Below, in pieces: positions 1-32,580 of a stretch of DNA of 32,894 nt. The stretch is taken from the IMG/VR virus record IMGVR_UViG_3300031159_000040, positions 1-32,894 of that record. The stretch is one strand, 5' to 3'. Below the pieces are notes generated by a model that did no database searches, was not told the origin of the DNA, and saw only the letters and a program-made list of their open reading frames with translations. Position 1 is the stretch's first letter. Each line of letters begins with the position of its first letter. The DNA comes from a virus. Lineage: Duplodnaviria; Caudoviricetes. A program made the translations under genes and the position numbers.

Positions 1-34
1 AACGGCTCAGAACGTAAACCCGGTAATCGGTCAT
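1..34 (-). CDS. 5' start of probable TadB-like (T2SS F family) pilus assembly protein, runs off window
   Basis: GGAGG RBS then ATG at 34 (MTDYRVYVLSR...) immediately after the cpaF stop; identity inferred only from usual tad gene order. Confidence 0.45.
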   Translation of the reverse strand, partial: MTDYRVYVLSR

Positions 35-37
35 CCG

Positions 38-388
38 TCAACCTCCTTCCACGAATCCGGCAAACCGCAGCTTGCGCACGTTCTGCAGCGAAGAAACCCG
101 CTCCAGCCGTCCTCCCGCGGCGCCGCTACCCTCCTTTCTTTCCTCGTGCCGAAACAGCGTGCGCAGCCGCACCTCCCCATCCTCCATTCCCGCCACCTCG
201 CAGATTTCCGCTACCCGGCGGGAACGGTCGCGAAAACGGCTTAAATGAATCATGATATCGATCGCGGACGCAATCTGGCGGCGAACGACCGGAACCGGAA
301 GATCCGCGCCGCCCAGCACCATCGTTTCCAACCGCGACAGCATGTCGCGCGCGCCGTTACTGTGGCCGGTGGACAAGCTTCCTTTATG
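38..388 (-). pseudogene. cpaF: 3' half of CpaF/TadA pilus assembly ATPase, split by prophage insertion
   Basis: HKGSLSTGHSNGARDMLSRLETMVL...QIASAIDIMIHLSRFRDRSRRV matches the CpaF His-box region and C-terminus; Walker A/B half absent, AT-rich phage DNA begins right upstream. Confidence 0.85.
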
Positions 389-4644: not shown

Positions 4645-4707
4645 CCCGCCTGATGATGGCCGGATGGTAACCGGCCGAAACGTCCACCCGAGCGTCGCGG
4701 GATACCC
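4645..4707 (+). ncRNA. Type I hammerhead ribozyme (HHR1), predicted cleavage after C4696
   Basis: Stem I CCCGC/GCGGG; core CUGAUGA; one extra U; stem II GGCCGG/CCGGCC; GAAA; stem III ACG/CGU; GUC cleavage triplet. Confidence 0.85.
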
Positions 4708-4730
4708 GCCACGAGTTGAAAACCGCATAC

Positions 4731-4770
4731 CGCATAAGCCCTCACCTTCGGGGAGGCAGCGGGGAAGGAG
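4731..4770 (+). repeat. UUCG hairpin + RBS leader element, copy 1
   Basis: CGCATAAG(C/T)CCTCACCTTCGGGGAGGC(A/G)GCG also at 5343-5373. Confidence 0.8.
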
Positions 4771-4778
4771 AATGAACC

Positions 4779-5321
4779 ATGAAACTCTCTCAATTGCTTG
4801 CCACTAAAAAGGTTGTCGCTTCTGGCTTTGCCGCTATTGCGGGATTATCCGCGTACTCGCGAGGCACGGAAGAGGTTGTCCTGTCGTCGCTGGCTCCGTC
4901 CATCTTGGCGGAACAAGGAGTAACGGAATACTATGCGCTGGAACTTCCGCGTGGGACAGTCTACAACACGTCGGAGGAGATTATCGCAGCCGATCCGGAC
5001 GTGCGTCGCTACACGATTCAGCCGGTTGCCAACGTGAGTGACCTGGATGTGGTGATTGTCTCCCGCCACGCAGGCACAGTAGCGCTCCTGCAAGACCGCT
5101 ATCCGGGCGCTCAGGTACTCGACTCCGTTACGCCGAACCAAATCGCCGGCAAACACGTCGTCGGCACGCTGCCGCCTCATCTTATCACCGCTGCTGGCGC
5201 GTACACCGCCGTTACGATTCGCGGGTTTGACTACGCCAAGGACGGGGACTTGGCGGGTCAGGAGTTGGCGGCGCGGATTGTCATCGCTGACAAGCCGCTC
5301 CGGGTCGTGGAGATTAACTAA
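4779..5321 (+). CDS. Csx16-like putative cyclic-oligoadenylate ring nuclease (tandem domains)
   Basis: C-terminal VIVSRHAG...IAGKHVVGTLPPHL...GQEL matches Csx16 (VVA1548) motifs; N-terminal half looks like a degenerate copy. Confidence 0.7.
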   Translation: MKLSQLLATKKVVASGFAAIAGLSAYSRGTEEVVLSSLAPSILAEQGVTEYYALELPRGTVYNTSEEIIAADPDVRRYTIQPVANVSDLDVVIVSRHAGTVALLQDRYPGAQVLDSVTPNQIAGKHVVGTLPPHLITAAGAYTAVTIRGFDYAKDGDLAGQELAARIVIADKPLRVVEIN

Positions 5322-5342: not shown

Positions 5343-5382
5343 CGCATAAGTCCTCACCTTCGGGGAGGCGGCGCGAAAGGAG
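5343..5382 (+). repeat. UUCG hairpin + RBS leader element, copy 2
   Basis: Near-identical to 4731-4770. Confidence 0.8.
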
Positions 5383-5390
5383 AAATGAAA

Positions 5391-6107
5391 ATGTTTAACA
5401 TTGATTTCGTCTATGACTCGACCAATCTGCCGAGTCAAACAGGTAAAGAAGGCATTCGGGCGGCTCTCCACTATTTAGATGCCGCGGACGGGCAAATTAA
5501 ATCGATTAAGGGCAAGATTGGCTATGGTCGGTATACCGCCGGTTACAGTCGGGATGGAGGATTTACTTCCAGATCGTACGGATTTTCTATGGCGCAGGAG
5601 GGTATCCTGCTCAGGTATTTTGACAACAGCAACAACGGGAGCTGGACCTGGTTTATCCCAGACGATCTCTCCGAGATAGAGGGCGTTCTCGTTTTTGCTT
5701 TTACAGCACATGGCAGGTCCATCGACTCATATGTCCAAAGTATTGACTACGGCTTGGTGTTAAAAATCAATACTGCGAACTACGGAGATCGGCATCCTTT
5801 AAATTTGATTTACGATTCTGTTAAATTTGACCAATATCGACCCGAGTTTAATCTCTTTGGAGATTATTTGGCTGTCCTTTTGCTGTCGCTTTTGGCCGAG
5901 TATAAGGACGCATTAGCGTATCCCTTTACTACCGGAGCATTGGAGGGTAAGACTTTGGGGTCTGCGCTGTATGACATTGCATCTCGTAGGCACTCAGCTT
6001 TTTTGGATGCAATGTTGTCCGGGGACATTAAAGTCGATCCCGCCCAACTTTTGAGGGGATCGAAGTACCTCGGGCGGGACCTGTATCCGCAATATTATTC
6101 GGCATAA
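5391..6107 (+). CDS. 238-aa hypothetical protein
   Basis: RBS AAAGGAG 8 nt upstream; no family recognised. Confidence 0.75.
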   Translation: MFNIDFVYDSTNLPSQTGKEGIRAALHYLDAADGQIKSIKGKIGYGRYTAGYSRDGGFTSRSYGFSMAQEGILLRYFDNSNNGSWTWFIPDDLSEIEGVLVFAFTAHGRSIDSYVQSIDYGLVLKINTANYGDRHPLNLIYDSVKFDQYRPEFNLFGDYLAVLLLSLLAEYKDALAYPFTTGALEGKTLGSALYDIASRRHSAFLDAMLSGDIKVDPAQLLRGSKYLGRDLYPQYYSA

Positions 6108-6201
6108 ATGACAAGAGCCCCCTTACGGGGGCCATGTCGTGTAGGAACAAGGTTGTTTTAATCAACGCCTCGCTCGTGGCGGGCGACAAGGCCGAAGCCT
6201 T
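6108..6201 (-). ncRNA. Solitary type I-C-like CRISPR repeat RNA (Racr/crRNA-like candidate)
   Basis: 5' UUCG hairpin, repeat GTCGCCCGCCACGAGCGAGGCGTTGATTAAAAC (6187-6155), ~22-nt spacer-like segment, GCCCCC-GTAA-GGGGGC hairpin. Confidence 0.7.
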
Positions 6202-6236
6202 ATCTGTATAATATACAGATACCCAAAACTTGTCAA
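6201..6236 (-). promoter_or_regulatory. Near-consensus SigA promoter with operator for the repeat RNA
   Basis: TTGACA(6236-6231)-17-TATTAT(6213-6208); inverted repeat TATCTGTAT-AAT-ATACAGATA (6201-6221) over the -10. Confidence 0.8.
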
Positions 6237-6325
6237 CCCACCTGACGAGCGCGCAAGCGCCTTGGGACCGCTGGGTACGGTCCGAAACCGCCGCGTCGAG
6301 ATGACGCCGCGGTCGCGGGATACCA
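6237..6325 (+). ncRNA. Type I hammerhead ribozyme variant (HHR2), predicted cleavage after C6314
   Basis: Core CUGACGA; inserted GCGC-GCAA-GCGC hairpin; stem II GGACCG/CGGUCC; GAAA; stem III ACCGC/GCGGU; GUC; stem I CCCAC/GCGGG with one A-C mismatch. Confidence 0.75.
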
Positions 6326-6455
6326 GCCACGAGCTGGCCCGGCCGGGCTGGCCTTTATATAGATTGTTCTTTGAAAATAAAACAGGACTCGTCAAAATCC
6401 GATATATATTGTAACATGTGGAATAGAATTTATTCCTACAATTGGGGGAATTGGA

Positions 6456-6956
6456 ATGAAAAAATCTTTAATCGCTGGCGCAATTGTTGCCGCGCTCCTT
6501 GCCGGATGCTCGGCAGAGACTGATAGTCTTAAGCCTGCTAGTGTACCGGCATCGGTAAGCCCAGTTCCTGCAATCGAAGCGCCCGAGTCGACGACTGCGC
6601 AGGAAGTGGCTCAAGAAACGGCGAAGCCTACAAATACGGAGAAGAATGTGCCTAGAGAATATACGGCAGCATTAAAAAAAGCGGAAATGTACGCTGAGTC
6701 TATGAGTATGTCAAAGGCTGCTATTTATGATCAACTGACCTCTGAATATGGAGAAAATTTTCCGAAAGAAGCCGCTCAATATGCCATTGATAACATCACT
6801 TTTGATTGGAAAGAAAATGCATTAAAAAAAGCAAAATTGTATGCGGAATCTATGAATATGTCAGATTCTGCTATTTATGATCAACTGACCTCTGAATATG
6901 GAGAAAAATTCACCAAAGAGGAAGCACAATATGCGATAGATCATTTAGAAAAATAG
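6456..6956 (+). CDS. ltp: Ltp-family surface lipoprotein (superinfection exclusion)
   Basis: Lipobox LAGC; two 50-aa repeats A/NALKKA..YAESM.MS..AIYDQLTSEYGE.F.KE.AQYAID. Confidence 0.9.
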   Translation: MKKSLIAGAIVAALLAGCSAETDSLKPASVPASVSPVPAIEAPESTTAQEVAQETAKPTNTEKNVPREYTAALKKAEMYAESMSMSKAAIYDQLTSEYGENFPKEAAQYAIDNITFDWKENALKKAKLYAESMNMSDSAIYDQLTSEYGEKFTKEEAQYAIDHLEK

Positions 6957-6987
6957 TATTTGGTACTGATACGTAAAGCTAAATAGC

Positions 6988-7021
6988 AATCAGCCCGAGA
7001 GCCGAAGCCCTCGGGCTGATT
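6988..7021. terminator. Hairpin between convergent ltp and endolysin genes
   Basis: AATCAGCCCGAG/CTCGGGCTGATT 12-bp stem. Confidence 0.7.
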
Positions 7022-7022
7022 C

Positions 7023-7919
7023 TCATTTGTACAAGAACACCTTTTTAACATCACCGTTCCAGCTCACACGTGCCCCCAGCAACTCAGCAGCCGCCCGTAC
7101 GCCGACGTAAGTCACCCCGTCGATGATCTCGAACACGTCCACGACCTTGCCGTCCACGTATGGCAGCTTGGACTCATTATCCCAGTGGACCACCTTGCCG
7201 AGCGCCTCCCCGAGCTGTCGCAGCGGCAAATAGACGTGGCCGTCAATCGCTCGACCGTAGCCTGCCAGCTTGTCGTTGACGACGACCTTGATGGTATCCT
7301 TTTCGTTGGGTTGCGGTCCGGCCACCGGTGCCGGGTTCGTGTTCCACCAGCCTTCGCCGCCATACGATTCGTTCAGATCGACCGTCGCGCCGGCCAAGCT
7401 GACGCCGTTTTGATGCTGCCAGATGTTTGCGCGCGCCGACTTCCTGCCCCGGCTCCAGGCGTAGGTCTGCCAGAAATGCTTGGCGGCGCCGCGCCGGGCC
7501 ATTTCCTCAATGACGGCATACGAGCCGTAAACGCCGACCCGATAGCCGGGGATCGCGGACGACGCGGCGCGCAGGTATGCCTCAATCGCGTCGTAGTCCT
7601 TGGGCTGCGCGTCGTAGTCCACGGCAAAATAGATGGCCGTACCAAGAGGTTGTCCGATAGCGATAGCCTCTTTGAGGGCTTCGGCGCCGTCTACGATCCC
7701 AGCAGCGCCACCCCCCGCTGGTCGATTGGCGGTCGTCTCGAACACGCTGACAATCTGCATCCCGGCGGCCGTGATGGCCTCCGCCTCGCCCCTCGTCAGC
7801 CGCTTCCAGGCATAGCGCTCCGGCACCAGATACCGCGCCGCGAAGGCGTAGCCGGCTGCGGCAATCGCTTTGGCCGTACTGGCGGTCAGCGGAATCGCGC
7901 AATCGATGCCTTTAGCCAT
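7023..7919 (-). CDS. Endolysin, DUF1906/GH25-like glycoside hydrolase with C-terminal copper-amine-oxidase-N-like binding domain
   Basis: GIDC, ARYL, IYFAVDYD, GVYGS, WQTYAWS motifs; YLPLRQLGEALG..VHWD C-domain. Confidence 0.88.
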   Translation of the reverse strand: MAKGIDCAIPLTASTAKAIAAAGYAFAARYLVPERYAWKRLTRGEAEAITAAGMQIVSVFETTANRPAGGGAAGIVDGAEALKEAIAIGQPLGTAIYFAVDYDAQPKDYDAIEAYLRAASSAIPGYRVGVYGSYAVIEEMARRGAAKHFWQTYAWSRGRKSARANIWQHQNGVSLAGATVDLNESYGGEGWWNTNPAPVAGPQPNEKDTIKVVVNDKLAGYGRAIDGHVYLPLRQLGEALGKVVHWDNESKLPYVDGKVVDVFEIIDGVTYVGVRAAAELLGARVSWNGDVKKVFLYK

Positions 7920-11279: not shown

Positions 11280-12662
11280 ATGAATGAATTAATATTCGAT
11301 TACAGAAAGAAATCGTTTAGAGAACTATTTCTTATTTACTTTCTGGTTCTGATTCCTTTGATTGTTGTTGTACCTTCTTTTTACCGTCCTGAAATAAATA
11401 AAATTAGCCCTTCTTTTGTGTTTACAAACTTGATCATAGGCTTTACTTCGCTAATAATGATCATTTTAGAAGCAAGAAAAACGATGTATTCTCTTCACTT
11501 GATCCATTGGCTATTCCATTTTTCATTTTTCTTTATCGCTCCAATCATCCAGTATTTACATAATAAATTTATGTGGGGGAATTTAACTTCTGATGACTTG
11601 AATGTACTTATAAAAGCAAATATTTTAATCATTTTGTGGCAGTGGGTATGGATAATAATCGCAATAATAACAGAGAAAAAACATATATTTAAAGAAAATA
11701 CTGACGAGTTCGGCACCCAAATAGGAATTAGTTCACTTCGCTTTTTTATTTTGTTTGTTCTATGCGTAATTGACTTATTCTACTTTGTTCAAATCATCGG
11801 ATTTGGAGGTCTATTTGCCAGAGGTTCTGAAAAATTATTCTCTGACAACAGTTCGCTTAATCAAATTATTTATAATGTCGGAAAATCACTTCCTATTGTT
11901 TTATTAGTTGCGTCATATTACCAAAAACAAGTAAAACAGAATAAAAAAACTTGGTCATTTATGATATTAATTTCAGCAGTACTTGTTTTACTTTTAAATT
12001 TTCCAACTGCCGTCTCTCGCTTTTGGATGGCTACCGTGTATATTGGTATCATCTTGACATTTTTTAAGTTTAAGTCCAAGAACCTGTTTACTTATCTGCT
12101 TATATGCGGATTGCTCATTTTGTTTCCGATATTAGGATCTACACGTCATGCCTCCAATCTTAACGATTGGATCAACATTATGTTAACCAATGGATACACT
12201 AACAATATTTTAACAGGTGATTACGACGCATTCTCTATGATAAATCATACCATTCGTTATATTGATATATATGGCGTTACTTATGGCCATCAATTACTGG
12301 GTGCTCTGCTGTTTTTCATTCCCAGAACGTTTTGGGAAAGCAAGCCCATCGGAAGTGGGCCGACTGTTTCCGAGGGACTTGGATTAAGCTTTGACAACAT
12401 ATCAAACCCTTTAATATCCGAAGGACTAATCAATTTCGGACTACCTGGTTTATTTATATTTGCATTTTTGTTTTCCTTCGCAACCAAAAAACTAGATTTG
12501 CACTTCTGGTCAAATGGAAATTCGATTTTTAAGATTTTATACCCCTTCTACATTGGTCTATTCTTCTTTATGATGAGAGGAGATTTGTTATCTACTTTTA
12601 GTCTGACGGTCAGCTTTAGCTTTGCGTTTTTTATTTTCCTCCGACCGTCGAAAAAGAGATAA
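11280..12662 (+). CDS. Wzy-like polysaccharide (O-antigen) polymerase, moron
   Basis: 460 aa, ~11-12 TM; SR motif, FFIPRTFWESKP, EGLINFGLPG, MRGD motifs typical of Wzy/O-antigen polymerases; low GC; opposite strand. Confidence 0.8.
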   Translation: MNELIFDYRKKSFRELFLIYFLVLIPLIVVVPSFYRPEINKISPSFVFTNLIIGFTSLIMIILEARKTMYSLHLIHWLFHFSFFFIAPIIQYLHNKFMWGNLTSDDLNVLIKANILIILWQWVWIIIAIITEKKHIFKENTDEFGTQIGISSLRFFILFVLCVIDLFYFVQIIGFGGLFARGSEKLFSDNSSLNQIIYNVGKSLPIVLLVASYYQKQVKQNKKTWSFMILISAVLVLLLNFPTAVSRFWMATVYIGIILTFFKFKSKNLFTYLLICGLLILFPILGSTRHASNLNDWINIMLTNGYTNNILTGDYDAFSMINHTIRYIDIYGVTYGHQLLGALLFFIPRTFWESKPIGSGPTVSEGLGLSFDNISNPLISEGLINFGLPGLFIFAFLFSFATKKLDLHFWSNGNSIFKILYPFYIGLFFFMMRGDLLSTFSLTVSFSFAFFIFLRPSKKR

Positions 12663-32198: not shown

Positions 32199-32580
32199 GT
32201 AAGACGTCGCACGCAGTCATCAAATGGGGCCCTCCCTGCACCCCGCGGCGACGGTCGGCTCACCATTTGAAAGACGCGGGAGCCTACGCGCCGAACGCAT
32301 CTTTAGCCGGGCGTCCTACGGCATCGCAATATGCTGCGCGCCGGTCCGGTCGGCGCACATAGAGGATTTGCACCCTCTTTACCACGTCGGATCGTTCCAG
32401 TCCGGCGCAGAAAAGAAGGGACAAAGCCCTTCATGGGGTCTCGAACCCCGCCCCATCTCCACACGCTCGGCGACTCGCGCCTAAGGCCCAGCCGATTTCG
32501 GCTCACCCACCGCATGGCCGGGTGCCGCAAACGATAAGGGGTACAGCGGCAATCACCCGAGCATTAAGCTCTATGTGATT
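32152..32580 (-). ncRNA. Long structured late-leader RNA candidate
   Basis: GC-rich non-coding stretch with many hairpins, two T-loop-like hairpins and two terminators. Confidence 0.45.

Follow-up and report, generated by a model that had tools for sequence, protein, structure and literature searches.

A solitary, diverged type I-C-like CRISPR repeat in a Paenibacillaceae prophage as a candidate RNA anti-CRISPR decoy

What might a single type I-C-like CRISPR repeat do in a prophage? The repeat considered here is intergenic in a mobile element, within a siphophage structural module and distant from core cas genes. A sequence-only reading of the locus proposed that it is transcribed on its own and that the RNA either sequesters host Cascade or guides it to silence a target such as the cas promoter. 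The first of these is favored here: the lone, altered I-C repeat between a promoter-like and a terminator-like site is probably an RNA anti-CRISPR decoy.

The window, meaning the whole stretch of DNA that was analyzed (positions 1–32,894), is the entire record G000 and represents a prophage of siphophage type: its ORF annotation includes genes for terminase, portal, capsid, tail, lysin, and Ltp. Positions 1–382 are host DNA with a 98% match to the Paenibacillaceae genome G141, the next best among 401 genomes searched reaching 79%, and G141 is used below as the likely host genome, a species-level stand-in for the host strain. We take positions 1–382 to be the 3′ portion of a cpaF-like gene (for a Tad pilus ATPase), which the prophage boundary (window 1–385) would interrupt. 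An identical copy of the element was found on a 243.7-kb contig (L030), which is consistent with integration. The repeat unit sits in an accessory region between a plus-strand two-gene unit (4779–5321 and 5391–6107) and an Ltp gene. Elsewhere in the prophage, an Rfam epsC RNA motif (32435–32558, minus strand, 67.5 bits) lies upstream of the integrase and terminase region, and a low-GC 460-aa gene (11280–12662, plus strand) without a Pfam or PHROG family adjoins the tail genes as an insertion. A small gene (1837–2082) is surrounded by repeated promoter-like sites (1408–1448, 2062–2084, and 2090–2130) that have a palindromic 23-nt core and could form an operator set for a small repressor.

Every minus-strand element named by the sequence-only reading (TTGACA-17-TATTAT, the palindrome, the hairpins, the repeat, and the 22-nt segment) is present where it had been placed. 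These elements and their neighbors, with L001 and L065 denoting two related phages, are as follows.

6231–6236, minus strand: −35 box TTGACA of a predicted sigma-A type promoter, kept in L001 and L065
6208–6213, minus strand: −10 box TATTAT, 17 nt from the −35 box, with a predicted start near 6203–6200; homologs have TATATT at the same 17-nt spacing
6202–6220, no strand: perfect 9-1-9 palindrome with −10 boxes on both strands, not conserved
6188–6201, minus strand: 5′ AAGGC-UUCG-GCCUU hairpin, an insertion confined to this promoter variant
6155–6187, minus strand: solitary type I-C-like repeat (33 nt), with a predicted Cas5d cut between 6166 and 6165
6133–6154, minus strand: 22-nt spacer-like segment, no target found, 17/22 identical to L001
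6110–6138 (core 6133–6116), minus strand: GC hairpin with a weak U-tract, the likely terminator, common to the convergent plus-strand operon
4779–5321, plus strand: Csx16-like protein of 180 aa, a predicted cA4 ring nuclease and anti-type III candidate, with a weak match to Pfam PF09652
5391–6107, plus strand: 238-aa protein without a known family, convergent on the unit, replaced by an unrelated gene in L065
4645–4701, plus strand: hammerhead-like ribozyme HH1 (CUGAUGA, GAAA, GUC), core at 4650, predicted cut after 4696
6237–6319, plus strand: hammerhead-like ribozyme HH2 with an extra hairpin, core at 6242, predicted cut after 6314, divergent from the unit

The predicted promoter fits the consensus at 11 of 12 bases and is the top of five promoter-like sites in 5800–7100 (shuffle mean 1.8). 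The palindrome had been taken for an operator, and comparison speaks against that role: it is missing, as is the 5′ hairpin, from both nearest homologous units (L001 and L065), and no second copy occurs in the window or, at up to two mismatches, in G141 or G364. An assembled contig from RNA run X24 covers 6102–6163; the run is available as contigs only, in which strand, ends, and level are not readable. That contig, from one run, aligns to 6163 with three letters left and so ends about 1 base from the predicted Cas5d cut. No Rfam family matched at the repeat unit, and BLAST of 5900–6500 against 50,697 phage records gave one chance match only. The literature searched, which included few subscription papers, yielded no paper on this unit, although the 219 candidates of a preprint on Cracr RNAs may include relatives.

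Membership in the I-C repeat family was assessed with a covariance model (R1) built from 10 distinct I-C array repeats of G001, G002, G003, G141, and G364 (Paenibacillaceae and Bacillaceae), with the stem imposed. R1 scores the unit at 26.0 bits (E 1e-4, on a rough calibration), whereas the next best of seven listed window sites reaches 10.0 bits and 33 control loci of the host family, 90,625 bases in all, contain no match at E ≤ 5. This is the single R1 match of note in the window, and no second full or partial repeat lies within 100 bp of the unit; the description of a solitary I-C-like repeat is thereby borne out. The 3′ flank of HH1 was considered as a second repeat and rejected for want of an R1 match. 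Most array repeats of other genomes score 40–52 bits on R1, and the unit at 26 bits is therefore a clear but diverged member of the family.

The divergence is equally apparent in pairwise comparisons. The unit repeat is identical to the G141 repeat at 23/33 positions (70%); among 40 distinct host-side repeats, the closest agrees at 25–26 of 33–35. The comparison with host repeats that had been suggested as a check showed a resemblance to I-C repeats of the host family and a low identity to the repeat of the likely host. A solitary repeat of an unrelated phage, classed as I-C in a published table of solitary repeat units (SRUs), is closer at 28/33. All of these values, which cover the host-side repeats and one catalogued SRU, are below the at least 90% identity to an entry of its 17,823-repeat database that SRUFinder requires. 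At up to three mismatches, the exact repeat was found in none of 401 Paenibacillaceae genomes. A metagenome scan with the 19-nt 3′ half of the repeat returned 13 stretches, of which three are this unit (L030, L036, and L038) and the other 10 were dropped because of unrelated contexts. A viral pattern scan returned 10 stretches: L063, L064, and L065 belong to the family of the unit, unrelated phages with canonical I-C solitary repeats account for L061, L062, L067, L068, and L070, and L066 and L069 look like chance.

Several features bear on whether Cas5d could process such an RNA. Folded alone, the repeat (6187–6155) forms a 7-bp stem, interrupted by one bulged A and capped by a 5-nt loop, that leaves 2 nt unpaired at the 5′ end and an 11-nt tail at the 3′ end. 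PMC8524198 describes I-C repeats with 2-nt 5′ and 11-nt 3′ overhangs, a 7-bp stem, and a 5-nt loop, so apart from the one bulged base the unit repeat matches the geometry of a Cas5d substrate. Its handle is changed at 2 of 11 positions relative to the canonical UGGAUUGAAAY tail (UUG for UGG after the stem, and one G>A), whereas TGGATTGAAA[C/T] is the ending of every one of the 211 array repeats counted. Recognition by Cas5d involves the stem base and the 3′ overhang, and an 11-nt handle remains after cutting (PMC5965381); Bacillus halodurans Cas5c reads U22-G23-G24 (PMC8524198). The latter source also reports that Streptococcus mutans Cas5c cuts a G23U substrate near the wild-type rate, and G23U is the same change as in the unit repeat. 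In the full predicted RNA, a competing fold in which the 3′ arm of the repeat pairs with the spacer is more stable by 2.0–4.6 kcal/mol, and the equilibrium probability of the repeat hairpin is 0.02–0.18 at 37 °C and 0.07–0.34 at 55 °C. The corresponding probability is 0.9 in the L001 variant and 0.12 in that of L065. The repeat hairpin, being local, would form first during transcription.

A decoy needs a host system to engage, and the likely host has one. G141 encodes two Cas5d genes above the family cut-off, contains 19 type I-C repeat matches, and has a full-looking operon adjoining an array, a cas3-5-8-7-4-1-2-like run with gene names read from translations. Cas5d is present in 18 of the 54 genomes of the G141 genus. 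In the window itself, the earlier statement that cas genes are absent holds for core cas genes, none being found among 35 ORFs scanned, and is qualified by the weak Csx16 match at ORF 4779–5321. Among collected host spacers, 0 of 48 and 0 of 148 match the phage; the set of 48 gave one 14-nt chance match, to L008. A contig from DNA run X13 agrees with window positions 4972–5318, near the 3′ end of the Csx16-like gene, beyond which it carries a canonical I-C repeat; TTA occupies the PAM side. This single contig, judged on 30 of its 96 loose letters, reads best as a likely host spacer against this phage.

Comparison with related phages indicates which part of the unit is maintained. L001, which is the same contig as L008, L019, L038, L040, L064, and L104, has a repeat identical to that of the window at 33/33 positions, whereas its promoter differs except for TTGACA-17-TA..T. 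Third codon positions of two neighboring genes are identical between L001 and the window at 142/180 and 179/238, or ∼77% neutral identity. At that rate, 33 unchanged bases would have a probability of about 1e-4 to 4e-4 if neutral, although recent recombination may also account for the identity. The spacer, at 17/22, diverges at the rate of the third codon positions. In contigs of runs X13 and X18, agreement with the window extends to 6188, the 5′ edge of the repeat, at which point the contigs change to the other promoter type, itself near consensus; the listed X18 differences within the unit fall at 6123–6148, in the hairpin loop and spacer. The third phage, L065, is without the Csx16-like gene and has an unrelated 225-aa gene before the hairpin, yet it retains the unit, with one loop change in the repeat, the canonical UGG after the stem, and an R1 score of 33 bits. 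The first six spacer bases are kept in all three close variants. Taken together, the L001 and L065 comparisons identify the repeat as the conserved part, whereas promoter details, spacer, and upstream gene are not conserved.

Units of this kind also recur beside other Csx16-like genes. Eighteen loci were fetched around relatives of ORF 4779–5321 (L002–L018 and L060), some representing the same prophage twice and some ending near the gene. R1 matches at E ≤ 0.05 in five of them (L008, L013, L014, L016, and L060), compared with none in the 90,625 control bases. Weak matches with the same promoter-repeat-hairpin layout and different stem sequences are present in L002 (13.8 bits) and L007 (11.6 bits), further weak matches occur in L011, L012, and L018, and a convincing unit is absent from 11 of the 18 loci. 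The common layout in L008, L060, L014, L016, L002, and L007 has a TTG...-17-TA...T promoter immediately 5′ of the repeat, a 7–8-bp stem of varying sequence, a tail starting TGGATT or TTGATT, and a short segment with a hairpin at the end, on the strand opposite the Csx16-like gene. The first repeat of L060 is a close relative of the window repeat with a near-canonical tail. A two-repeat unit is found in the G364 prophage (L060 3313–3393 and L053 about 6582, both minus strand), with an extra repeat-like tail at L060 2784–2814. The complete phage L013 carries, together with a Csx16-like gene, a three-repeat I-C mini-array (6923–7093, plus strand) with its own predicted promoter and terminator and full-length spacers.

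The neighboring ORF 4779–5321 matches Cas_VVA1548/Csx16 (PF09652) at E 4e-5 and 24.1 bits, below the 25-bit cut-off, and has 69 homologs, some called Csx16 by NCBI. Its structural model (pLDDT 93) has AFV3-109 as a weak top fold match (VIA-align Z 4.5, rmsd 3.3, 84 aligned), with a Z value within the range of common arrangements, and Foldseek returned no match to the model at E ≤ 0.001. In PMC12409355, Csx16 is described as a cA4 ring nuclease, with 2 of 28,114 phage genomes encoding it, and the viral Crn2 homologue AFV3-109 is a weak fold match there as well (Z 4.8). ORF 4779–5321 differs from that Csx16 in its extra N-terminal half, its 180-aa length, and its sub-cut-off Pfam match, and its activity is predicted only. 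The second gene of the pair, ORF 5391–6107, has no Pfam, PHROG, or named Atlas family.

How might the unit act as a decoy? The proposed sequence of events begins with transcription from near 6203–6200 to give a predicted RNA of 85–95 nt. Host Cas5d would bind this RNA and cut at the stem base, leaving an ∼55-nt RNA from 6165 that consists of the 11-nt handle, the 22 nt, and the hairpin. Cas7 would then load, and Cas5d, Cas7, and Cas8c would be tied up in a short complex without a target, reducing host type I-C interference. Given that 22 nt replace a full spacer and that no target was found, the simplest role would be using up these three proteins. The adjoining Csx16-like gene may supply the type III component of a small anti-CRISPR island. 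A Cas10 palm match is present in G364 and there is none in G141, which leaves this component without a partner in the G141 assembly.

The sequestration of host Cascade put forward by the sequence-only reading is supported by the R1 score, the presence of type I-C in the host, the selective retention of the repeat, and the reappearance of the layout in related phages. Weighing against a decoy are the 23/33 identity to the host repeat, the two handle changes, the competing fold, the weak terminator U-tract, and the 11 of 18 loci without a unit.

Known systems provide precedents. Repeat-mimic phage RNAs were described in 2023 (Camara-Wilpert et al., PMC10651486); that paper reports that Racrs compete for Cas proteins and that RacrIC1, itself a solitary I-C repeat, is able to inhibit type I-C. 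The unit resembles Racr/SRU elements, and RacrIC1 especially, in having one repeat in a phage intergenic region without core cas genes and a host of the same subtype, and each of the two adjoins a candidate anti-CRISPR protein. They differ in that RacrIC1 is co-transcribed with acrIC5, whereas the unit has its own predicted promoter and terminator, and in that the neighbor here is Csx16-like and not a known type I Acr. The unit is also 70% identical to the host repeat, compared with the at least 90% rule of the published SRU search, and was not found by contig id or motif in the 2,193-entry SRU table (PMC10651486). Because almost nothing lies 5′ of the unit repeat, a RacrIF1-like Cas7 filament on the 5′ part is impossible, and a decoy complex must build from the handle side. 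The unit is best described as an unusually diverged new example of a phage counter-defence already known; the principle is not new.

A bolder and quite unlikely extension is that phages of Bacillales and Clostridia carry a recurring two-system anti-CRISPR module, in which a Csx16-like ring nuclease directed at type III accompanies a highly diverged I-C repeat RNA missed by published searches. Here the module would be excised by two hammerheads as a 1,618-nt RNA, and the small RNA, through its altered handle and competing fold, would serve as a slow-release or temperature-gated Cas5d trap.

The second half of the sequence-only reading, that the RNA is a crRNA-like guide of the Cracr type, is unlikely. 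Cas3-blind Cascade would repress a host promoter via partial pairing of the 22 nt beside a TTC PAM. In the Cracr preprint (Liu et al., bioRxiv 10.1101/2024.10.29.618823), Cracr RNAs share with the unit a single pseudo-repeat, a short pseudo-spacer, and a terminator in a phage, I-C examples exist, and at least nine PAM-proximal matching bases set a Cracr apart from a decoy. The host CreR/CreA arrangement described there shares the repeat-short spacer-hairpin layout. Host-genus loci have the same layout (repeat, 22–27 nt, GC hairpin) upstream of cas3; their solitary I-C repeats (L145 2266–2297, L152 1103–1134, L151 1166–1197, L146 1166–1197, and L143 2269–2293) are likely CreR-type autoregulators. 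In addition, the first spacer of L060 starts ATA and matches the G141 cas5 promoter at 12/15 positions, and the accompanying TTC PAM lies immediately 5′ of the −35 box; this match was reached by 8 of 200 shuffles, uncorrected for being one of nine spacers tested. The unit family may therefore include guides, and the two-repeat unit of L060 is a Cracr candidate, but the window unit is without a sign of being one. The unchanged first six spacer bases would also suit a guide, although the spacer as a whole diverges at the neutral rate.

The window spacer itself argues against guiding. Across 49 regions upstream of cas3 or cas5 in the host genus (18,106 nt), it matches at no more than 5/15 positions, a value that 178 of 200 shuffles attained, and the proposed targeting of the cas promoter therefore finds no support in these regions. 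Taken with its two variants, the best matches are 5–7/15, reached by 170–182 of 200 shuffles in the same regions, all from genomes other than that of the true host strain. Host solitary-repeat spacers start ATA, whereas the window spacer starts AAC. A search for TTN plus 15 nt at one mismatch found nothing in G141 or G364, and the one 11-nt PAM-anchored site in G141 (C6:85539) compares with three control matches; the ORF downstream of that site is presumably isopentenyl-diphosphate-isomerase-like. Spacer targets in the window and the cas loci were at chance level only, and 16 of the 54 genus genomes had a match, against many control matches, mostly in coding sequence or repeats and again at chance level. 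The search for the 22-nt segment in host and phages beside a PAM, which had been suggested as a check, thus returned chance matches only. Relative to Cracrs and CreR/CreA as described in the accessible preprint text, the unit has no PAM-proximal cas-promoter match of at least 9 bp and no host CreR with a similar spacer in the loci examined; it is phage-borne and distant from cas genes, its spacer is unrelated, and no toxin partner was identified.

It is improbable that the unit is a decaying relic, a former working decoy or mini-array weakened by handle changes, the bulge, and misfolding. The low identity to host repeats and the two handle changes are what a relic would display, and the equilibrium fold hides the hairpin in the window variant. 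Conservation of all 33 bases against ∼77% neutral identity is difficult to reconcile with decay, as are the replacement of the promoter module at the repeat edge by another near-consensus promoter and the retention of the unit in L065 when the upstream gene was swapped.

The hammerheads raise another alternative: the unit might regulate the convergent hammerhead-flanked operon in cis, as an antisense or antitoxin-like RNA, with the CRISPR-repeat likeness secondary. HH1 and HH2 were detected with motif and stem scripts, neither has an Rfam match, and the literature searched, with few subscription papers covered, contained no paper on hammerheads with phage Csx16. The two have a 25-nt 3′ flank in common, and each has a loop able to pair with the 3′ flank. 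Their predicted cuts bracket a 1,618-nt cassette with the Csx16-like and 238-aa genes. A similar hammerhead core is present in L014 (3980–4039), upstream of the Csx16-like region. A 42-nt leader (90% identical) precedes each cassette gene (4731–4772 and 5343–5384, plus strand). A different gene follows this leader in L065 and in an X24 contig, which suggests gene swapping at the leader.

An antisense role is very improbable. The unit does face ORF 5391–6107 across the common hairpin and lies inside the span between the predicted hammerhead cuts. However, the unit overlaps the operon only at the hairpin, and the earlier suggestion that the unit is antisense to the ribozyme cassette RNA stands only if the operon reads through the common hairpin to HH2. 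HH2 is missing beside the unit in L001 and L065, and L065 has another upstream gene, so what is conserved is not an antisense role. The palindrome carries a plus-strand −10 box that could drive HH2, in which case the two promoters would be divergent and their transcripts would not overlap. An 11-nt word is common to the HH1 3′ flank (4705–4715, plus strand) and the repeat loop region (6183–6173, minus strand), but its two occurrences run in the same sense, with no complementarity between them, and the word is interrupted in L065. Furthermore, unrelated stems with the same tail in L014, L016, L060, L002, and L007 are as expected for selection on Cas5d geometry.

Least probable of all is that the unit borrows host Cascade as a single-guide weapon against a competing phage or plasmid: the L013 mini-array with its full-length spacers near a Csx16-like gene offers a parallel, but the segment here is 22 nt whereas host array repeats are about 65–70 nt apart, and a PAM-plus-spacer scan of viral contigs gave one stretch, on an unrelated-looking contig, where pairing stops after ∼17 nt.

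If the RNA decoy is active, type I-C RNA anti-CRISPRs can function with a repeat only about 70% identical to that of the host, and identity-based catalogues undercount them. The three natural variants, with canonical or altered handles and folded or misfolded hairpins, offer a ready series for defining the requirements of Cas5d and I-C Cascade, a mechanism not worked out for RacrIC1 in the accessible part of PMC10651486. The recurrent pairing with a Csx16-like gene may serve as a marker for finding further units.
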